64,000 bases of DNA from Candidatus Pacearchaeota archaeon (GTDB taxonomy: Archaea > Nanobdellota > Nanobdellia > Pacearchaeales > GW2011-AR1): NCBI GenBank assembly GCA_038874355.1, contig JAVZCO010000001.1:322074-386073 (forward strand). Direction: 5' to 3'. Under the pieces are notes generated by a model that saw only the letters and a list, made by a program, of their open reading frames with translations, was not told where the DNA came from and ran no database searches. Positions within the stretch are counted from its first letter, which is position 1. Each line of letters starts with the position of its first letter. Below, in pieces: positions 23,285 through 61,561 of the stretch. The translations under genes and the position numbers were made by a program.

Positions 23285-25309
23285 TTATATTCTTTGAATA
23301 TGACCTTTTCTTGGATGAAAAATATCTCCTTGTAATGTTAGTTTTTCTAAGGCTTCTTCAATATCTTTTTCACTCATTTTACCTTCTAATTCCTTTTTTA
23401 TTTCTTCTATTGGAATTAACTTTCCTAATTTACTCTCCATTCTTATTATCGTATCCTTTACTTGTAAAATTTTACTTCTTTGGCTTGTACTAATTCCAGT
23501 CGCAATTCTATCAATATCAAAACTTTTTGTTTCATAATCATAACCAACTTGTTGTAAAGAATAATTCATTAATTCAATTGCTCTAATTGCATCCTCTTTT
23601 GTTACCTCTTCAGATAATCTTGCTCTTGCAGAAGCTTCTGATAACCTTATTAATGCTTCTAATTGTCTTGCAGAGATTGGAATTGGTTTTATAGTTTCTT
23701 CTACAAAAGTGGTCGGATTATTTCTTAAATTTACATAAAAGGATTTTATTTCTTCCATTGCTTCATCTGTCAAAACAGGGAAAATTTTTTGTTTAGAATA
23801 GGCTATATATTTTTTAAATAATTCAGGTTCTATTAATAATTTTTCTTTAGCTTTTCTGTGTTCTGATAAAACATGACTTGCTATTAATTCATCTTTTGTT
23901 CTATCTGGTTTGTCTTGTAAAACAAATATTAAATCGAATCTATTAATTAAAGTAGGAGGAATATCTATTTGCTCTGAAACAGGATCATATAAATTAAATC
24001 TTCCCATTTTAGGATTTCCTGCTGCTAAAACAGAAGTTTCTGCTCTCAAAGAAGCTTGAACGTTAGCTTTACTTATAGTAACTGTTTGTTGTTCCATTGC
24101 TTCGTGCATTGCACTTCTATCTTGCGGATCCATTTTTTCAATTTCGTCTATACATACAATTCCTTTATTAGCCAATACCATTGCTCCTGCCTCTAAACTC
24201 CATCCTTTTAAATATTCATCTCTAACAACAGTGGCGGTTAAACCAGCGCCAGTTGCACTTTTTCCTACGACATATCTTCCTTTCGGGGCCATAGAAGAAA
24301 TAAATTTTAATATTACAGATTTAGCTACACCAGGATCACCTACAAGTAATATATGAATATCACCTCTTGTTTTAGTTCCGTCAGATCTTATTTTTTTATA
24401 ACTTCCAAAAAGCTGTAGAACAAGGGATTCTTTAATTTTTTCATAACCATAAACACTCGGAGCAATACTACTAATAAATTTTTTAAATAAATCAGGAGAG
24501 GATGCTAATTCTTTTATTTGTCTTTCATCTTCTTCATCTATTTCTAATTCAGAATAAGATTCTTCTAAAGGGACTATGTTATTAGCTTCTATTGCAATAT
24601 CACTTCTAGTTAATAAACTTCCTGTTTTACTTACTATAGGAATTTCTTTTAATATTCCAACAATTTCAACTCTAGAACCAGGAGTAGTTTTTTCTTCCAT
24701 TTTTGGCTCAACTAAATCTTCTTTTAAAAATACATCTAATCTCCTCGGCTGTTCTCCTCCAGAAAGATTTTCAGGACATTCTTCTATTACTATTCTTTGT
24801 GCATCAACCATCTCTTTTAGCAATAATTTAAATCCAGATTTTCTCCCGCAGCTACATCTTGAAGGTTCTCTAAATTTATTATCTATTTGTAATATTGTTA
24901 TTTTTGTTCCGCAAGAAGGACATTCAAATTTTGCATTAACCACTTGAGGTCTTACTTCAGAAGTTTGTCTTATTATTCCCTGAACTTTAACAAATTTATT
25001 AAGATGTTTGCTTCTTAAATCACGAATTTTTTCAAAATATGGGAAGTTATATATTCTAATACGCGGTTTTTCTATTAATCCTAATTCATCTAATGCTATT
25101 TCTAGTATTTGTAGTGTTCCTTCAGGATTTTGTATAAGATTTTCTGATAGTTCATAAGAAAAAGATGCTAATTCATTAAAATCTACATAAACAACATTAA
25201 TTCCTTCTTTTTTCTTTTTTCCTATTTCCCTTTTGTAAAATTCAAAAAAATTTTTCGCTTCAAAAATTAAATCTTCAATATCTTTTTTTTCTATATTTTC
25301 GTTTGTCAT
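23285..25309 (-). CDS. mcm: MCM replicative helicase
   Basis: Zinc finger CPSCG...CSCG, Walker A GDPGVAKS, Walker B CIDEIEKM, arginine finger SVLAAGNP. Confidence 0.9.
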   Translation of the reverse strand: MTNENIEKKDIEDLIFEAKNFFEFYKREIGKKKKEGINVVYVDFNELASFSYELSENLIQNPEGTLQILEIALDELGLIEKPRIRIYNFPYFEKIRDLRSKHLNKFVKVQGIIRQTSEVRPQVVNAKFECPSCGTKITILQIDNKFREPSRCSCGRKSGFKLLLKEMVDAQRIVIEECPENLSGGEQPRRLDVFLKEDLVEPKMEEKTTPGSRVEIVGILKEIPIVSKTGSLLTRSDIAIEANNIVPLEESYSELEIDEEDERQIKELASSPDLFKKFISSIAPSVYGYEKIKESLVLQLFGSYKKIRSDGTKTRGDIHILLVGDPGVAKSVILKFISSMAPKGRYVVGKSATGAGLTATVVRDEYLKGWSLEAGAMVLANKGIVCIDEIEKMDPQDRSAMHEAMEQQTVTISKANVQASLRAETSVLAAGNPKMGRFNLYDPVSEQIDIPPTLINRFDLIFVLQDKPDRTKDELIASHVLSEHRKAKEKLLIEPELFKKYIAYSKQKIFPVLTDEAMEEIKSFYVNLRNNPTTFVEETIKPIPISARQLEALIRLSEASARARLSEEVTKEDAIRAIELMNYSLQQVGYDYETKSFDIDRIATGISTSQRSKILQVKDTIIRMESKLGKLIPIEEIKKELEGKMSEKDIEEALEKLTLQGDIFHPRKGHIQRI

Positions 25310-25412: not shown

Positions 25413-25763
25413 TTAATCCTTTGCAAGGGCAAAAGCTGATTTTATAGCAACAACAATTGTTGCAGGAGTAAATAAATAGATCAAATAAGCAAATATAGGC
25501 CCAATTATATTTAAAGAAAGAAGGAATTGGCCTCCTAAGCTGCTTACTAATACAAGAGATGTTCCAATTAATAAAAACTTTAAGGATTCTTGACCTGATA
25601 TATTAAATAATCCTATCAAAATACCTATAATAACTAAAACTACTCGAATCCATGCTTGATTAGCAATTTGTTCTGAAAATAGGCCTAAGATTAAAGCAAG
25701 AATAACTCCTATTAAAAAAGCCCATGCACCAACTATATTTTTCTTTTTTGCTTTTGCTGGCAT
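25413..25763 (-). CDS. small membrane protein
   Basis: 116 aa with three or four hydrophobic helices. Confidence 0.35.
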   Translation of the reverse strand: MPAKAKKKNIVGAWAFLIGVILALILGLFSEQIANQAWIRVVLVIIGILIGLFNISGQESLKFLLIGTSLVLVSSLGGQFLLSLNIIGPIFAYLIYLFTPATIVVAIKSAFALAKD

Positions 25764-25942: not shown

Positions 25943-27625
25943 ATGAAAAGTAAATTTTTAATTTTAGCAACAATTTTGTTTAGCTTAACAATATTAAATT
26001 TTGTTAGCGCAAGTTTAATTTTTTCTCAAAATTCAGTTTATCTATCAAAATCCATTAACTCAACAGAAATAATTTTAACAAATAATGAAAATGAAACTGT
26101 AACCATAACATATCCAACAACAATAACAATTTATTCTGGAACAATCTTAAGAGACGAAATTTCTTACTCTATAAGTTTAGAAAACGCAACTTTAGAAGAA
26201 GGAAATAGTACAAAAATTATTATATCTTTACAAAAAAGTCCTTCTAATTGGAAAAACTTCAAAATAGGAAAATTGTATTCAACTATTATTACCTTTACTG
26301 GGAATTATTCTAATTGGACAGATAATAAAAATTTAACTCTTTACTTTGTTAATGATTTTTGTAAATATGGTGAAGTAGGAAAAATAGAAATATATAAAGT
26401 TACAGACGAATTAAAAGATAATGAAGATGAATGGATATGGCATCCTCTTGATAATATAAAAATAAAAGTTAATGATGTTTATAATGGATTCGATAAGTCT
26501 AAAAAAATAAAAGTGGAATATGCTTTATATGATAGTAATGGAAAAAATAAACTTGATTTAGAAAATATAGAAAGATACAAAATATTGAAAATAGACAGTG
26601 GAGATGAAAAAGACGTAACTTTTGAATTTAGAATTCCAGCAGATATTGAAGAAGGAACATATAAATTATTTGTTAAAGCATACATAGATGAAGATGAAGA
26701 TGAAGGTTGTACTTCTATAATAAACAGCGAAACAATATATTATCAAGAAGTAGAAATTGAAAAAGAATATGATAGAGCAGTTATTATTGATGAATATGAA
26801 TTAAATCCTATACAAGCAACTTGCGGAGAAAATATAATCTTAAATTTGCCAATATATAATATAGGAAATAAAGATGAAGAAAAAGTCCTTGTTAATTTAT
26901 ATAATAAAGAGTTAGGAATAAATTTATATGAGGTAATAGAAGAATTAGAAAAAGGAGAATCTACCTATGTAACATTTAACTTTGAAATACCACAGAATGC
27001 AACAGAAAAAATATACAATCTTGAAATTATTACATATTATGATTATGATGAAGATAATTCAAAATGTAATAAAGATACAGATATATATTGTTATGATGAA
27101 GATTCAAAAACAGATTTAGAAAAAAAATTTTATCAATCTATAACTGTAAAAGGAAATTGTATAACAACAACAAAAGAAAAAAATGTAAAGATAATGGCAT
27201 CTTTGATGAATGAAGAAGAAATAAAAGCCGGAGATGAGGTAGAAATAAAAATAACTTTTACAAATACAGGAAATAAGACAACTTCTTATATAATCATGGC
27301 TAGTGATTATGAAGATTGGGCAAATTTAATAAGCCTCGAACCGCAATCTTTTAATTTAGTCCCTAGCGAAAGCAGAGATGCTGTATTGAAGTTTAAGATA
27401 AACAAAGATACTTATGGGGAACAAACTTTCAAGATTAAAGTTTTATTTGATGGAATAACAGAAGAAAAAAGCATATCTTTAGAAATTGAACCACAACAAT
27501 CAAAATTTACAATAAGATTACCCAAGATATTTGAAGAAAATAAAATTTTACTTTGGATAATAATTGTTAATATTATCTTAATAATATTAATAATAATTGT
27601 TGCTATAAAAGTGTCTAGAAGTTAA
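25943..27625 (+). CDS. secreted surface protein (S-layer/adhesin-like) with C-terminal TM anchor
   Basis: N-terminal signal peptide, many N-x-S/T sequons, beta-rich repeats, C-terminal hydrophobic helix followed by basic tail KVSRS. Confidence 0.55.
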   Translation: MKSKFLILATILFSLTILNFVSASLIFSQNSVYLSKSINSTEIILTNNENETVTITYPTTITIYSGTILRDEISYSISLENATLEEGNSTKIIISLQKSPSNWKNFKIGKLYSTIITFTGNYSNWTDNKNLTLYFVNDFCKYGEVGKIEIYKVTDELKDNEDEWIWHPLDNIKIKVNDVYNGFDKSKKIKVEYALYDSNGKNKLDLENIERYKILKIDSGDEKDVTFEFRIPADIEEGTYKLFVKAYIDEDEDEGCTSIINSETIYYQEVEIEKEYDRAVIIDEYELNPIQATCGENIILNLPIYNIGNKDEEKVLVNLYNKELGINLYEVIEELEKGESTYVTFNFEIPQNATEKIYNLEIITYYDYDEDNSKCNKDTDIYCYDEDSKTDLEKKFYQSITVKGNCITTTKEKNVKIMASLMNEEEIKAGDEVEIKITFTNTGNKTTSYIIMASDYEDWANLISLEPQSFNLVPSESRDAVLKFKINKDTYGEQTFKIKVLFDGITEEKSISLEIEPQQSKFTIRLPKIFEENKILLWIIIVNIILIILIIIVAIKVSRS

Positions 27626-28190
27626 TTTTTTTCTTTTTCTTTTTTATTCTTTTTTCTAGTAAAATATTAGTATAAATACCTATAAAATATCCAACAATAG
27701 AACCAAAAATAATATCTGTTAAATAATGTTCTCCTAAATATAATCTTGAAAAAGCTACTAAAAGAGAAAAAATTAACCAAAAAAACTTGTAATTTTTATC
27801 AAAAAAAGGTAGAAAATTAAAACCTAAAGCAGAATGAAAAGAGGGAAAACTATCTCTTTCTAAAGAAAAAGGCCTAGTTCTTAAAAATATTATCTTTAAA
27901 AAATAAATTATAACTATTGTTAAAAAAACTGAAATTGGAATTTTTATTGCATTTTTTTTATTTTGAAATATTAAAAATAAAAATATACTTAATAAAAAAG
28001 GTATCAAAAAATTATAAGAACTTATAAAAGACATAAAATTAAAAAGAAATTTGTTTTTATTATTGTAAAAAAAATTAACTATTTTAAAATCATAAATAAA
28101 AGATAAAAATAAAATAGTTATTAATAATATTAAAGAAAATAATTTAAGTTGGATATTTTTTATTTTTTTCTTTTTTTTAGAATTTTTCAT
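27615..28190 (-). CDS. PAP2-family membrane phosphatase
   Basis: PAP2 motifs KxxxxxxRP (LRTRPFS), PSGH-like SFPSFHS and SRxxxxxHxxxD-like SRLYLGEHYLTDI. Confidence 0.65.
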   Translation of the reverse strand: MKNSKKKKKIKNIQLKLFSLILLITILFLSFIYDFKIVNFFYNNKNKFLFNFMSFISSYNFLIPFLLSIFLFLIFQNKKNAIKIPISVFLTIVIIYFLKIIFLRTRPFSLERDSFPSFHSALGFNFLPFFDKNYKFFWLIFSLLVAFSRLYLGEHYLTDIIFGSIVGYFIGIYTNILLEKRIKKKKKKINF

Positions 28191-28241
28191 TTTTAGAATT
28201 ATGTAAAAAGATATTTAAATATTTTCATTGTTTAACTTATT

Positions 28242-28781
28242 ATGAGAAAAGAAAGTAAAATAATTTTTTTTATTATTTTAAGATATCTTTCTTGTTTAAT
28301 TGTTTCTTTAAATGGTTTGTTTATATTCTATTATATATTTTCTCCAATAACTCTTCATTCTTTTTATTTTATAATAAAACTTTTTTATAATAATGCATCT
28401 TTATATGAAAATTCTGTTTTTTTAGATAATAGTAAGATAACTTTAGTTGAAGCATGCATAGCCGGTGCAGCATATTTTTTAATTTATATTTTAAACTTTA
28501 CAACACCAATGAAACCAAGAAAAAGAATATTCTCATTATTCTTTTCTTTTTCCCTATTTTTTATAATAAATCTTTTAAGAATTCTCATTTTTTCTTTTCT
28601 ATTCAAAAATAATTTCTTTTTATTTGAATTTTTACATTTGTTAGTTTGGTATTTTCTTTCAGCAATAATAGTTTTTTTTGTTTGGTTTTCTACTATAAAA
28701 TTATTCAAAATTAAAGAATTTCCAATCAGAGAAGATATAAAAAAATTTATTTCTATCTTAAAAAATGATAATAAAAAATAG
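28242..28781 (+). CDS. putative minimal exosortase/archaeosortase-family membrane protein
   Basis: Polytopic. Cys72 in VEACIAGAAY (compare ACSG) and Arg113 in NLLRIL are 41 residues apart, the same spacing as catalytic Cys173/Arg214 of ArtA. Confidence 0.35.
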   Translation: MRKESKIIFFIILRYLSCLIVSLNGLFIFYYIFSPITLHSFYFIIKLFYNNASLYENSVFLDNSKITLVEACIAGAAYFLIYILNFTTPMKPRKRIFSLFFSFSLFFIINLLRILIFSFLFKNNFFLFEFLHLLVWYFLSAIIVFFVWFSTIKLFKIKEFPIREDIKKFISILKNDNKK

Positions 28782-29118
28782 AAAAAATAAAATAGTTATA
28801 TTAAATGTAGAAAAATATAGCGGTATAAAGAAATTTATTGGTCTAATGTTTAAAAAAAGCCCAAAAAAAGCTTTGCTTTTTGAATTTTCTTCCCCTGTAA
28901 ATAGAAAGATACATTCTTTTTTTTGTAAACCTTTTTTGGCGGTATGGTTAAATATTAACAACGAGATTGTTGAAGTTAAATTAATAAATAAATTAGGAAT
29001 TTATTCTCCCAAAAAAAATTTTTGTAAATTATTGGAAATTCCCTTAACAAAAAAATATTATCTTTCTATAAAAAAAATTTTAAAAAGAAAAGATTTAAAT
29101 ACTTTCGTTGAGAATTAA
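28765..29118 (+). CDS. DUF192 (COG1430) family protein
   Basis: GLMFKK...LLFEF...LAVWLNINNEIVEV pattern typical of DUF192. Confidence 0.5.
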   Translation: MIIKNRKNKIVILNVEKYSGIKKFIGLMFKKSPKKALLFEFSSPVNRKIHSFFCKPFLAVWLNINNEIVEVKLINKLGIYSPKKNFCKLLEIPLTKKYYLSIKKILKRKDLNTFVEN

Positions 29119-52729: not shown

Positions 52730-55700
52730 ATGAAAAAAGAGATATTATTGTTATTATTTTGTTTTATTTGTTCATATGCACTGTTACCAGAAAATATTAC
52801 AGCTACTTGTTTAATACCTCCTTCTAATCCTTCTTATGATTACAACAATGATAATATAATTGATATTTATGATGTTAATTCTTTACTTCAAGTATCTATT
52901 GAATTAAGTAATTGTCAATCAAATAAAATTTGTGACCTAAATAATGATGGAATAATAGATATATCTGATGTTAATCTTCTTCAAAATTGGATTTATTCTA
53001 ATAACTGTCCTTTACTTAATTGTTCAGATAATCAGACCATAATGAAAGTTTCTAATATAACAAATGCTTATGCAGAAATTTGGAATGAAACAGAAAATTA
53101 TCTTTATCCAATCTGTTACCAAAATATATTCGGAGTCAATTATCCTGAACAAAATTCTCATGAATGTATAAAAAATAATAAAGTTATTGGGCTATCTTTG
53201 ACAAAAAACGCTCTTGCAGAGATTCCCTCTCTAAATAATTACCCGGTTAACGTTTGTTATGGAGATTTAGAATGTAACTCTACAAATCAATCTTGTGATT
53301 CTCTTGGCACAAATTATAAAGAGATTATAAGATTATCTAAAGAGACAAATGCTCTTTTAGAGATACCAATTAATTTTAGTTCATTTATTTTAGAGATTAA
53401 AGGAACATCAAAAGAAAATATATCGCATGTTAAAAATTATGAAAAAACAATAATATTAACAGATAAAATAGAAAATAAAACCATGATTGTACAAACCGAT
53501 ACATATGTAAATATTATGGAACCTCCTTCTAATTATCTTTCTTATTTTCCTTACCGGCAAACTACAAAAACATTTCAAGCAAATAAAGGGGATAATGTTA
53601 GTATAAAAGTTTTATACAAACAACAATTATCAAGTAATATTATCATTACTTACGGTATATACAAAAATGATATAAATATATATAATGTTACACAAATTAG
53701 AACACCAAACAAAGTTGGATTAGCAGCAGTATATAGAGAAGATAAAAGAGAATATTCTGAGAAAATAAAAGAATCAAAAGAAATAAGAAAAGAATATGCA
53801 GAAAAAGAAATAAAAAAATTTGGAAAAATTCCAGATAGTGTAATTAGCGAATCTTTAATGGATAATTTTGTTGGTTATTCTTATAGTGGCAGTAAAGATG
53901 TTAATAATTTTGTTACAATCAGTTCTGCTAATATTTATATAGATAATAATACAAAAGCAATAAAATTATTTCAAAAAGCAAGTACAATTGCTATTTGTGG
54001 TATGGTTAGAATGTGTATATCTACACCGAATGGATTATGTAATTCAAGTTATCAAAGCAATTATATGTTTCTTCATCATCTTTATTATGTAAATTATAAT
54101 GAAACCGGCGATTATATAATTCCTAATAATTTTGGTTGTAAAGGATATTATTATAATAAAAGCAGAGGAGATTTATACCTGCCTTCTTTAGATAAGAGTA
54201 TGGTTAGAATAGGAGAGATGAGAATAGATAATCCTCCTATTGGTAATCAAACTATTATCGTTCAAGTTGCTGGAACAAGCGACGTTTATTTAAGAGGAGG
54301 AGAAATATATTTAGAAAAAAATTCTAATTTATCACAAGAATTTATCGTAAGTAGTAATAATCCTTTTGTAAATGTTTATTTTTCAGATACGAAAGAAAAT
54401 AAAACAACTAATATAGCATCAGATATTCTAGGAAAATTATTGTTATATAACACTTTTCCAATAAAAATTTGTTGTAAGTCATTAATAGCCGAAAATATAC
54501 CATATCATCAAACAGAAGAACCAAATCAAACAGAATTTGGTTGTAATGTTAGTGAAAATCATCCTTATGATTATAATGATGATAAAGTTATTGATGCTTC
54601 AGATACAGGATTTTTACTAAAGGTTGCTTTAGAGTTAAATAACTGTCCATCAAATAAAATTTGTGACTTAAATAATGATGGAACAATAGATATATCTGAT
54701 GTTACTCTTCTAGTGAGATATATAACTGTAGATAATTGTAATATAACTATACCACAAATCCCAAAAGGAATAGCATACTGGGCTGATATGAATCAAAATT
54801 ATATAAATAAAACTAATGTAAATGATAGTGTATTAATGATATACAATATAGGAGAAGAATATAACGGACAGGAAATTAATTTTGAAGTTCATGAAGTAGA
54901 TAAAGGTTTATTTGATGTAGATTGTTCTGGTGACTGGCCTAATGAAGCAAGATATGCAAAAGCAAATGTTATTAATGGAAAAGCAATTGCTTTATGGAAA
55001 GCAAGATATTGTTCTAATGGAGAAAGTGATGGAGTTTATTTTATAGCAAAATTAAATGATACTATAAAAAATGAATCAGATATACTAGAAATTCTTTCTT
55101 ATAATAATGAAAAACCATATATAAAAATATTATCTCCTGAAAATGAAGATAAATTCTTAGTTAATAATGATATATCTTTTAATCTTTTCTATAAAGATGT
55201 AGATGACGAATTAGAAATAACATGGAATTTCAATAATGAAAATACAACAACTTTAACTAATTGCTTAAATAATAATTGTAATATAATAAAACATAGTTTT
55301 AATACACCTGGAGTTAAGATAATAAAAGTAAGAGCAAAAGAAAAGAATAGAGAACAATATTCAGAAGATGCAATATCCTTATATATTTATAAAGAAGGAA
55401 TAAATGTATTTGCAGTTATATCTAAACCAGATCCTAAAAAAGAAATAATAATTCAAAATATAACAAAAGTAGAATTTGACGGTTCTTCTTCATATGTATC
55501 AAATTGTACTAAATGTGAAAATAATATCTGTATAAATTGTCCTTCTAATAAAGAATGCTATAATGTAACAAGCAATACAGAAATATTACAATGTTTTGAT
55601 TTGCCAAAACCACAGCCAATAAATAGTCCTTTGCAAGGATATAACTTATGGTTTAATTGGACTATTTTAAGAGAAGATAATAACTTATACGGTAATATAT

Positions 55701-55807
55701 ATGGAGATTGGAATGAAAATTATTATAGCAGTGTTAATTTTAATCATACTTTTCGTCAATCAGGAAAATATAAAGCAAAATTAAAAGTAGGTTATGAACC
55801 ATTATAA
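52730..55807 (+). CDS. large secreted protein with two dockerin modules (N-terminal and internal)
   Basis: Signal peptide. Two Ca-binding dockerin repeat pairs (DYNNDNIIDIYD + DLNNDGIIDISD, and DYNDDKVIDASD + DLNNDGTIDISD), each bracketed by Cys. Many N-glycosylation sequons. Confidence 0.65.
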   Translation: MKKEILLLLFCFICSYALLPENITATCLIPPSNPSYDYNNDNIIDIYDVNSLLQVSIELSNCQSNKICDLNNDGIIDISDVNLLQNWIYSNNCPLLNCSDNQTIMKVSNITNAYAEIWNETENYLYPICYQNIFGVNYPEQNSHECIKNNKVIGLSLTKNALAEIPSLNNYPVNVCYGDLECNSTNQSCDSLGTNYKEIIRLSKETNALLEIPINFSSFILEIKGTSKENISHVKNYEKTIILTDKIENKTMIVQTDTYVNIMEPPSNYLSYFPYRQTTKTFQANKGDNVSIKVLYKQQLSSNIIITYGIYKNDINIYNVTQIRTPNKVGLAAVYREDKREYSEKIKESKEIRKEYAEKEIKKFGKIPDSVISESLMDNFVGYSYSGSKDVNNFVTISSANIYIDNNTKAIKLFQKASTIAICGMVRMCISTPNGLCNSSYQSNYMFLHHLYYVNYNETGDYIIPNNFGCKGYYYNKSRGDLYLPSLDKSMVRIGEMRIDNPPIGNQTIIVQVAGTSDVYLRGGEIYLEKNSNLSQEFIVSSNNPFVNVYFSDTKENKTTNIASDILGKLLLYNTFPIKICCKSLIAENIPYHQTEEPNQTEFGCNVSENHPYDYNDDKVIDASDTGFLLKVALELNNCPSNKICDLNNDGTIDISDVTLLVRYITVDNCNITIPQIPKGIAYWADMNQNYINKTNVNDSVLMIYNIGEEYNGQEINFEVHEVDKGLFDVDCSGDWPNEARYAKANVINGKAIALWKARYCSNGESDGVYFIAKLNDTIKNESDILEILSYNNEKPYIKILSPENEDKFLVNNDISFNLFYKDVDDELEITWNFNNENTTTLTNCLNNNCNIIKHSFNTPGVKIIKVRAKEKNREQYSEDAISLYIYKEGINVFAVISKPDPKKEIIIQNITKVEFDGSSSYVSNCTKCENNICINCPSNKECYNVTSNTEILQCFDLPKPQPINSPLQGYNLWFNWTILREDNNLYGNIYGDWNENYYSSVNFNHTFRQSGKYKAKLKVGYEPL

Positions 55808-59593: not shown

Positions 59594-61561
59594 ATGAAAA
59601 GAAACAGAGTAAAGAATTTAAAAATAATTTTCTTAGTTTTATTCTTAGTATTCTTTCTATTTCACTATTTTATTCTCATTGAAGCAAAGACAACAAGAAA
59701 TAAAATTAATTATCTTACATCAATAAACAATTTAATAAAAAATAAAAATTATTTTATTGATTATGAAAAATTACAATATAATTATGAACTAGCAGAAATA
59801 CAAAAAAAGATTAAAGAAAAAAATTTATCTTGGCAGGCTGGAGAAACAGAAGTTTCTAAATTACCTAAAGAACAAAGGAAAAAATTGTTAAGTGGAATCA
59901 TAGAAGTAAAAGACATAGAAAAATCAGAAGAAGAACAAATAAATAATTTTGATTTAAAATATTATGAAAATTCTTTACCTTCTTCTTTTGATTGGAGAAA
60001 TAAAGATGGTGTAAATTGGATGACTCCTGTTAAAAATCAGTTTTTATGTGGAAGCTGTTGGGCATTTGCTGATGTTGGAGTTATTGAAGCTGCCTTCAAT
60101 ATTTATCAAAACAATCCAGATCTTGATTTAGATTTATCTGAACAAGACGTAATTTCTTGTTCTGGATATGGAAGCTGTGGCGGAGGAACAGCAGGAGGTG
60201 GGCTTCTTTATGCAATAAATACAGGAATAGTTAATGAGACATGTTTTCCTTACACTGCAACAAATAATAATTGTTCAAATAAATGTTATAATGGAGAAAA
60301 ATATAAAATAAAGGGAAGATTTAATTACGGTTTCTATAATCACACAAATGAATATTGGAAATCTATATTAATGAAATATGGACCCGGAACTGTTCTTATG
60401 TATGCTCCTGATGATTTTTTATTCTATATTGGTGGAATTTATGAGCCTCTTAATGATGAAAAATCCGGATATGCGAATCATGCTGTAGTGTTAGTTGGAT
60501 GGAATGACACTGGCTTTAATGAAACAACAAATATGACAGAAGGATACTGGATAGTAAAAAATTCATGGGGGACTTATTGGGGAGAGAATGGATATGGAAA
60601 GATTAAATATGGAATTATAGAATCCTATAGGACTTTTTTAGTTGTTACTGGAATAATAAATGGAAGTATTACTTGTTCTAAAAATTCTGATTGTGGAATA
60701 GATAATTGTTATAATGGAACTTATAAAAAATTCTCTTGTATTAATCCAGACACAGAATATTCTTATTGTTCTTCTCAAGATATTATAACGGATAATGACC
60801 TAGACGGATATGATATTCAATGTGAATATGATTGTGATGATAACGATTCAAGTAAATGGCAAATCTTAAATGGATATCTAGATTACGATAAAGACAATTA
60901 TGGGGCAGGAGATATTATCAATGTTTGTTCTGGAAATAATTTACCATTAGGATATTCTTATATTTCTGGCGATTGTAATGACAATGATAGTTCAATATAT
61001 CCAAATGCTCAAGAATTATGCGATGAAAAAGACAATGATTGTAATTTCTTAATTGATGAAATTTTCTTAAATAAAGGAAAGAGTTGTGATGTTGGAGTTG
61101 GTTTTTGTAAAAGAACAGGAATTTTTATTTGCTCTTCAAATGGTTTAGAAACAATTTGTAACGTTATTCCAGGAGACCCAAAAAGAGAATTATGTTTTAA
61201 TGAAATAGACGATGATTGTGATGGAGAAGTAGATGAAGAAGATTGTGGAATTAAAGGAGATATAAATGATGATAGTATTGTAGATATTTCTGATGTTATC
61301 TTAACATTAAGAATGGCAATTGAATTAAATTTAACAATTAGAGGGAATAACTACGAGTATCCATATCCCGATTGGCTGATTAATAAAGCCGATATAAACG
61401 ATGATAAAGTTATTGATATTTATGATACAATATTAATTTTAAGAATATCTCTCGGTCTAAACTCTGAAGAAAAATTGACAGAATCTCAAATTCCTTCTTT
61501 TATAAAAACAGAAATAGAGAAAAAAGGTATGTGTATTGATGATATAAAAAAGATAAAATAA
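59594..61561 (+). CDS. secreted papain-family (C1A) cysteine protease with Cys-rich MopE-like repeats and C-terminal dockerin
   Basis: Signal peptide. Catalytic Gln/Cys NQFLCGSCWAF, His NHAVVLVGW, Asn NSWG. Three CxxxDCDDND-type repeats. C-terminal dockerin DINDDSIVDISD + DINDDKVIDIYD. Confidence 0.75.
   Translation: MKRNRVKNLKIIFLVLFLVFFLFHYFILIEAKTTRNKINYLTSINNLIKNKNYFIDYEKLQYNYELAEIQKKIKEKNLSWQAGETEVSKLPKEQRKKLLSGIIEVKDIEKSEEEQINNFDLKYYENSLPSSFDWRNKDGVNWMTPVKNQFLCGSCWAFADVGVIEAAFNIYQNNPDLDLDLSEQDVISCSGYGSCGGGTAGGGLLYAINTGIVNETCFPYTATNNNCSNKCYNGEKYKIKGRFNYGFYNHTNEYWKSILMKYGPGTVLMYAPDDFLFYIGGIYEPLNDEKSGYANHAVVLVGWNDTGFNETTNMTEGYWIVKNSWGTYWGENGYGKIKYGIIESYRTFLVVTGIINGSITCSKNSDCGIDNCYNGTYKKFSCINPDTEYSYCSSQDIITDNDLDGYDIQCEYDCDDNDSSKWQILNGYLDYDKDNYGAGDIINVCSGNNLPLGYSYISGDCNDNDSSIYPNAQELCDEKDNDCNFLIDEIFLNKGKSCDVGVGFCKRTGIFICSSNGLETICNVIPGDPKRELCFNEIDDDCDGEVDEEDCGIKGDINDDSIVDISDVILTLRMAIELNLTIRGNNYEYPYPDWLINKADINDDKVIDIYDTILILRISLGLNSEEKLTESQIPSFIKTEIEKKGMCIDDIKKIK

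Follow-up and report, generated by a model that had tools for sequence, protein, structure and literature searches.

The question raised by this locus is whether two nearby genes of a Candidatus Pacearchaeota archaeon, one for a small polytopic membrane protein of 179 residues and one for a 560-residue surface protein, encode an archaeosortase and the substrate that it processes, and which of the genes around them belong with this pair. The genes lie in a stretch of 64,000 nucleotides (contig JAVZCO010000001.1, positions 322,074 to 386,073), which was analysed as a whole and is referred to here as the window. An earlier sequence-only reading had proposed that a minimal archaeosortase, a PAP2 lipid phosphatase and a DUF192 protein could act with the surface protein as one module for lipid anchoring and surface-protein processing. 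Our analysis makes it highly likely that the locus encodes a dedicated archaeosortase-substrate pair of a Pacearchaeota-specific type, with the substrate being processed in the manner proposed below. What we observe is that both proteins belong to curated families, that residues of a catalytic type are invariant in the enzyme, and that the two genes are adjacent in nearly all related loci. The features concerned are the following.

28242-28781, plus strand: pacearchaeosortase, a five-helix polytopic membrane protein of 179 residues (NF033505; Cys72, Arg113 and His132)
25943-27625, plus strand: PACE-CTERM putative S-layer protein of 560 residues, the presumed sortase substrate (NF033506, Pfam domains and GenBank identity)
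27512-27622, plus strand: C-terminal sorting domain of the 560-residue protein, residues 524-560, IRLPKIFEENKILLWIIIVNIILIILIIIVAIKVSRS (tail column frequencies and tail profile)
27615-28190, minus strand: PAP2-family integral-membrane lipid phosphate phosphatase of 191 residues (PF01569 and motifs)
28191-28241, no strand: divergent intergenic region of 51 bp between the PAP2 and sortase genes, with the palindrome ATATTTAAATAT at 28211-28222, a putative bidirectional TATA-box promoter
28765-29118, plus strand: DUF192-like open reading frame of 117 residues (PRK03760, below its cutoff)
25413-25763, minus strand: conserved four-helix membrane protein of 116 residues, divergent from the S-layer gene (synteny)

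The stop codon of the 560-residue protein is separated from the start codon of the 179-residue protein by 616 nt, in which the PAP2 gene is placed, in the position that had been read from the sequence alone. The S-layer and PAP2 genes are convergent, and their 3′ ends overlap by 11 nt (27615-27625).

The 179-residue protein matches the NCBIfam model NF033505, ‘pacearchaeosortase’, with 165.2 bits against a cutoff of 80 (E 1.4e-48); residues 11-170 align to positions 4-163 of the 167 in the model, which is essentially its full length. The protein is also 100% identical to GenBank entry MEM3405752.1, annotated as ‘pacearchaeosortase’ in a metagenome-assembled genome of ‘Candidatus Pacearchaeota archaeon’. 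The best-scoring of the other subfamilies is ArtE (TIGR04124), whose model aligns from one end to the other (3-152 of its 153 positions pair with residues 4-156; E 3.4e-9); with 36.9 bits against a cutoff of 95, the window protein is not a member of this subfamily. The ArtA model, TIGR04125, gives no match to the protein at E<=10. When 28 relatives were compared with the same models, NF033505 matched all of them, TIGR04178 matched 27 (counted at E<0.01; best 4.9e-9), the heimdallarchaeosortase model 21, ArtE 18 weakly, and TIGR04125 a single one, also weakly. The family is large, with at least 2,759 clusters at 90% identity matching its profile, and the 120 among these matches that were listed are all pacearchaeosortase-like. 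A relative is encoded in 250 species-representative genomes. The related loci are deposited as Pacearchaeota, Nanoarchaeota or ‘Woesearchaeota’, with the exception of three under bacterial names; the latter contigs (L037, L046 and L073, deposited as Vicingus sp., Patescibacteria group and Collierbacteria) are probably mis-binned archaeal contigs.

Cys72, which lies in the segment TLVEACIAGAA, and Arg113, in IINLLRILIFS, are 41 residues apart, as had been noted from the sequence alone, and both residues prove to be invariant in an alignment of the 28 relatives, which have 36-62% identity to the window protein. The full set of invariant positions in this alignment is A71-C72-I73-A74-G75, R95, N110, R113-I114, H132, W136 and W148; His132 is thus a further conserved residue of a catalytic type. 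Judged by the family models common to both enzymes and by the identical spacing, Cys72 and Arg113 are the likely counterparts of Cys173 and Arg214 of ArtA, where the numbering of Arg214 is reportedly that of Abdul Halim et al. in 2018.

An AlphaFold2 model of the 179-residue protein, with a predicted local distance difference test score of 89, has helices at residues 3-22, 27-48, 75-87, 92-122 and 128-154, together with a small beta-hairpin loop (53-67) and a C-terminal amphipathic helix. The positive-inside rule would place the KPRKR loop (91-95) and the Lys-rich C-terminus in the cytoplasm, and Cys72, the outer part of the Arg113 helix and His132 would therefore be oriented towards the outer face of the membrane. 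The PDB holds no relative of the protein, as Foldseek returned nothing below E 3 and searching its sequences with a profile found none, and the predicted fold thus provides no independent evidence. One subclade of the sortases (P0056, P0061, P0065, P0066 and P0068) has an insertion of around 25 residues with two conserved cysteines in the loop that precedes the catalytic Cys (alignment columns 76-102), which could be a disulfide-bonded extracellular loop.

The 560-residue protein scores 353.1 bits against the NCBIfam model NF033506, ‘PACE-CTERM-PROT, putative S-layer protein’ (cutoff 110, E 3.3e-105), and is 100% identical to GenBank MEM3405750.1, a ‘putative S-layer protein’. It has CARDB and NPCBM_assoc Ig-like domains, both above their Pfam cutoffs, and a hydrophobic segment at the N-terminus, MKSKFLILATILFSLTILNFVSA, that resembles a Sec-type signal. 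The C-terminus consists of a linker, around 22 hydrophobic residues and a K..R basic tail. The view of this protein as an upstream surface protein with a sortase-type C-terminal signal is therefore upheld by both the family match and the helix with its basic tail. We did not find more sequons for N-glycosylation than expected in the 560-residue protein, which has 9 compared to 6.8 +/- 2.3 in shuffled sequences, and enrichment of these sites was rejected.

Column frequencies over 102 non-redundant tails give the sorting signal as N-W-x-x-W ... N-x-x-L-x-x-x-I-I-x-V-A-x-[RK]-x-x-[RK], a pattern located in the helix and at its edge, with a basic end of the form [RK]-x-x-[RK]-[KRS]. The Asn and Trp at the outer edge of the helix are found in 81% and 83% of the tails, the mid-helix Asn in 95%, and the Leu, the two Ile, the Val and the Ala that follow in 99%, 97%, 84%, 82% and 83%, respectively. 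The segment ahead of the helix is a variable Gly/Ser-rich linker, and it is this linker that holds LPKIF, which the sequence-only reading had taken as the short signature motif. The stretch is poorly conserved: IRLPKIF in the window protein is replaced by NLPGIF in its closest relatives and by [IL]TG.. in many others, so the conserved positions lie elsewhere than had been supposed. The expectation that the C-terminal signal would recur among surface proteins holds across the orthologues of other genomes; it does not hold among the proteins of the window, where one open reading frame in 64 kb carries it. A profile hidden Markov model of the tail, run without filtering over all open reading frames of the window, matches the 560-residue protein alone (E 1.1e-19; next best 0.018), and a second substrate within the window was rejected on this result. 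Within the limits of a 64-kb view, this has the appearance of a dedicated pair in which the enzyme serves one substrate. The window also encodes a 1025-residue dockerin/PKD protein (52730-55807, plus strand) and a 655-residue papain-family protease with a MopE-like metal-binding motif (59594-61561, plus strand); both are likely to be surface or secreted proteins and have no PACE-CTERM tail.

Conservation of the gene neighbourhood was assessed in 84 non-redundant related loci (85 with that of the window), taken from species-level genomes encoding a relative of the sortase. A PACE-CTERM gene lies directly upstream of the sortase gene and on the same strand in 60 of the 61 loci with at least 2.8 kb of upstream sequence, and in the single exception there is a run of N in the sequence. 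The proposal of a minimal archaeosortase is thus borne out by the NF033505 score, the end-to-end ArtE alignment and the adjacency to a substrate gene.

Comparison with known sortase systems shows where this pair belongs. It does not differ in any respect from the NF033505/NF033506 pair: both proteins score above the curated cutoffs along their whole length, their sequences are already annotated accordingly, and the taxonomy fits. The best-studied relative is ArtA (TIGR04125) with its PGF-CTERM substrates in Haloferax volcanii, which belongs to the same superfamily, has the S-layer glycoprotein as its main substrate and recognises a three-part C-terminal signal. Cys-173 of the H. volcanii enzyme is the active-site residue (PMC7157517), and the reaction has been proposed to pass through a thioester intermediate that is resolved by archaetidylethanolamine (PMC7157517; reviewed in PMC6098224). 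Like the window protein, ArtA is a polytopic enzyme with a Cys nucleophile, and the spacing from Cys to Arg is 41 residues in both; however, ArtA has around 300 residues (artA is 912 bp) compared to around 180 here, and the window pair has neither a match to TIGR04125 nor a PGF motif. While genomes with ArtA encode from one to 52 substrates (PMC6098224), a single adjacent substrate is seen in the window. The neighbouring lipid gene also differs, being PAP2 in the window and pssA or pssD for artA, which is syntenic with these genes in Methanosarcina (PMC7157517). As ArtE has the same minimal size as the window protein, around 150-180 residues, this locus is not alone in deserving the name ‘minimal archaeosortase’. 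The bacterial exosortases (XrtA and others; PF09721 EpsH) with their PEP-CTERM substrates share the TIGR04178 signature with 27 of the 28 relatives, and ACIAG is similar to the Cys motif of exosortases; in contrast to these, the window system is archaeal and much shorter, it has another signal, and its one substrate is encoded next to it, where exosortases have many that are dispersed.

We propose that the 560-residue precursor would be exported by the Sec pathway by means of its N-terminal signal peptide and kept in the membrane for a time by the helix at its C-terminus. The pacearchaeosortase would then recognise a conserved face of this helix, formed by the outer-edge Asn and Trp, the mid-helix Asn and the L...II.VA pattern, together with the basic tail. 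By analogy with ArtA, Cys72, aided by Arg113 and His132 near the outer face of the membrane, would cut off the helix via a thioacyl intermediate, and this may be resolved either onto an amine-bearing membrane lipid, anchoring the protein as in the ArtA proposal, or by water, leading to its release. Cleavage, thioacyl chemistry and lipid attachment in Pacearchaeota are thus inferred from homology to the Haloferax enzyme; ArtA of H. volcanii is the one enzyme for which removal of the helix and lipid transfer have been demonstrated (PMC7157517, PMC6098224).

Several observations weigh against a dedicated archaeosortase-substrate pair of this kind. Many DPANN archaea have no lipid biosynthesis. 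The generic model TIGR04178, which the sequence-only reading had named and which nearly all of the relatives match, gives only 21.2 bits for the window protein itself (E 2.6e-4, cutoff 23), and TIGR04125, the second model that it had named and one that describes a different subfamily, does not match. The window protein has no match to PF09721 or to any other Pfam family, although some of its pacearchaeosortase relatives have precomputed PF09721 matches, and the proposed correspondence of Cys72 and Arg113 to the ArtA residues draws on family models and spacing. No short motif of the PGF or PEP type is conserved ahead of the substrate helix, and the earlier remark that the tail has no PGF motif is therefore correct. 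Finally, a search of the available literature returned no paper with ‘pacearchaeosortase’ or ‘PACE-CTERM’; the knowledge of this system is found in NCBIfam models and genome annotation.

The low G+C content of this genome could provide a trivial explanation, in which AT-rich membrane open reading frames, rich in Ile, Leu and Phe, would produce both the Cys/Arg spacing and the hydrophobic tail by chance, with no kinship to sortases. At around 22% G+C, the value across the whole 64-kb window, hydrophobic low-complexity reading frames are frequent, and the lack of a Pfam match for the 179-residue protein would be consistent with this; however, E-values of 1.4e-48 and 3.3e-105 against curated models, a family of at least 2,759 matching clusters, the invariance of the catalytic-type residues and the synteny in 60 of 61 loci refute it, and we give it practically no credence. 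An explanation that accepts the conservation and disputes the chemistry is that the C-terminal helix, like that of Sulfolobus SlaB, anchors the protein in the membrane permanently, with the 179-residue protein being only a sheddase, chaperone or assembly factor that performs no lipid transfer. The most conserved tail positions are inside the helix (the mid-helix Asn and the Leu above all), which could reflect a helix-helix contact that is retained, and the lack of a conserved cleavage motif ahead of the helix points the same way; a fraction of the H. volcanii S-layer glycoprotein anchored by a transmembrane helix has also been discussed (PMC6098224). On the other hand, invariant Cys, Arg and His residues in an exosortase/archaeosortase fold argue for catalysis, and in ArtA, the only homologue studied, cleavage is coupled to lipid attachment. 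We consider a permanent anchor to be improbable, and favor processing of the substrate by the pacearchaeosortase.

This leaves the role of the PAP2 gene, and the possibility that the phosphatase, the sortase and the surface protein constitute one obligatory three-part module for lipid anchoring, with PAP2 making or recycling the acceptor lipid. The identity of the gene product is clear, with 44.1 bits against Pfam PF01569 (cutoff 27.2) and all three phosphatase motifs present: K99IIFLRTRP (Kx6RP), P116SFH (PSGH-type) and S148RLYLGEHYLTD (SRx5Hx3D). Its nearest relatives of solved structure, LpxE (6ebu, E 4.8e-6) and Bacillus subtilis PgpB (5jki), are both membrane lipid phosphatases, which speaks for such a module. 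Among 28 aligned PAP2 orthologues, motifs C1 and C3 are invariant; 12 of the orthologues have Gln, Asp or Arg in place of the His of C2, which the window protein keeps. This replacement speaks against the obligatory module, and may indicate altered chemistry or a non-hydrolytic role.

The arrangement of the PAP2 and sortase genes speaks for a connection between them. The two genes are head to head in 28 of 78 loci (36%), and the gap between their start codons is nearly always 48 bp, compared to 51 bp in the window. Exactly at the midpoint there is a perfect palindrome, TATTTAAATA, in 25 of 30 such gaps, against a background of 0.038 per kb; in the window this sequence forms the center of the longer palindrome ATATTTAAATAT, which is located around 25 nt from either ATG. 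This symmetry suggests a single archaeal TATA box that serves as a putative shared bidirectional promoter for two leaderless transcripts. Many of the loci without PAP2 have a similar, non-palindromic TATA-like box around 22-26 nt before the sortase ATG, and it is kept even where the stop codon of the S-layer gene is 40-60 bp upstream; the sortase gene therefore seems to have a promoter of its own. In three loci (L011, L020 and L047) PAP2 remains beside the sortase gene even though the S-layer gene lies beyond other genes, which also favors a bond between the two.

Pairwise identities of the PAP2 proteins and the sortases are correlated (Spearman 0.79), and this fits a long co-inheritance with repeated loss; however, the same correlation is equally expected of linked neighbors that are inherited vertically with no functional tie. 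In a neighbor-joining tree of the sortases, one large clade has almost no PAP2 and the other has it in patches, and the use of PAP2 as a clade marker was rejected. The tree, built on 170 residues, is too poorly resolved for gains and losses to be counted. Absent from 64% of the loci, including almost all of the large clade, PAP2 is not obligatory at this position. The synteny of artA with pssA and pssD in Methanosarcina provides a precedent for a lipid gene beside an archaeosortase gene, while our literature search found no paper combining archaeosortases with PAP2. We therefore regard an obligatory three-part module as unlikely, and describe PAP2 as an accessory, co-inherited neighbor in about one third of lineages. 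The module proposed from the sequence alone is accordingly reduced to its sortase and substrate, with an optional PAP2.

PAP2 may supply or recycle a lipid or a polyprenyl phosphate, and a functional link of any kind between it and the sortase appears doubtful. A more specific version, to which we assign a slightly lower likelihood still, is that in around one third of Pacearchaeales lineages, including that of the window, PAP2 is co-expressed with the archaeosortase from one palindromic TATA box and is its working partner, preparing or recycling a lipid or polyprenyl phosphate for processing of the S-layer protein at the outer face of the membrane, with the 116-residue membrane protein as a conceivable further component. 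If true, this partnership would be the counterpart of the link of PssA and PssD to ArtA in haloarchaea and methanogens, and it would operate in organisms that presumably rely on lipids taken up from elsewhere.

Downstream of the sortase gene, the 117-residue open reading frame overlaps its 3′ end by 17 nt (28765-28781), which suggests co-transcription with the sortase in this genome only. The name DUF192 given to it in the sequence-only reading is weakly supported: Pfam has no family for this protein at E<=10 and thus no DUF192 (PF02643) match, and the sole match is to NCBIfam PRK03760, ‘hypothetical protein’ (E 6.2e-11, 42.3 bits against a cutoff of 146), a model which we take to belong to the DUF192/COG1430 group. 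A DUF192-like gene overlapping the sortase gene in this position is found in the window only, that is in one of 85 loci. With no homologue in the 84 other loci, its candidacy as a part of the module was rejected, and we consider it to be an incidental neighbour.

On the other side of the pair, a four-helix membrane protein of 116-130 residues is encoded divergently from the S-layer gene in 47 of the 55 loci with enough upstream sequence. It belongs to no Pfam or NCBIfam family and has the strongly conserved blocks EN..GAWAFLIGV and LFVPATI.VALKTVFS. The wider region is largely syntenic in the four loci with called genes that were examined (L001-L004), with L11, L37ae, prefoldin and SepF upstream in three of them, and the synteny of the small membrane protein is therefore weak evidence for a function with the pair. 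In all four of these loci a second large surface protein, of 813-901 residues and with an S_layer_C domain (PF05124), is encoded downstream, a few genes away from the sortase gene (L001 7677-10118, L002 7755-10460, L003 7096-9594 and L004 7544-10180, all on the minus strand); it has no counterpart near the pacearchaeosortase locus in the window.

The system described here is already known, in that NCBI has curated models for both proteins and the identical genes have been annotated with these names; the finding is right and, for this reason, not new, and the locus does not extend the range of known systems. Literature on DPANN archaea and archaeosortases together appears, as judged largely by term counts, to consist of passing mentions, and a review describes archaeosortases as present in a subset of the Euryarchaeota (PMC6098224). 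Demonstrated anchoring of an S-layer by an archaeosortase is limited to Haloferax, and the pair described here presents this principle in minimal form in DPANN archaea. With an enzyme of around 180 residues and a single substrate, it would be convenient for the study of substrate recognition. The points added by our analysis are the definition of a sorting signal within the helix, the recurrent PAP2 gene with its putative shared promoter, and the conserved small membrane protein beside the substrate gene.

The surroundings of the locus are those of an archaeal chromosome, with housekeeping genes for MCM, an RPA-like OB-fold protein, archease and aminoacyl-tRNA synthetases. The MCM gene (23285-25309, minus strand) was identified from its translation and from the Pfam MCM domains of the orthologous gene in L001. 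Elsewhere in the window there are genes that look like those for an ATPase of the type IV pilus/archaellum type and for pilin-like proteins, together with candidates for a membrane platform.

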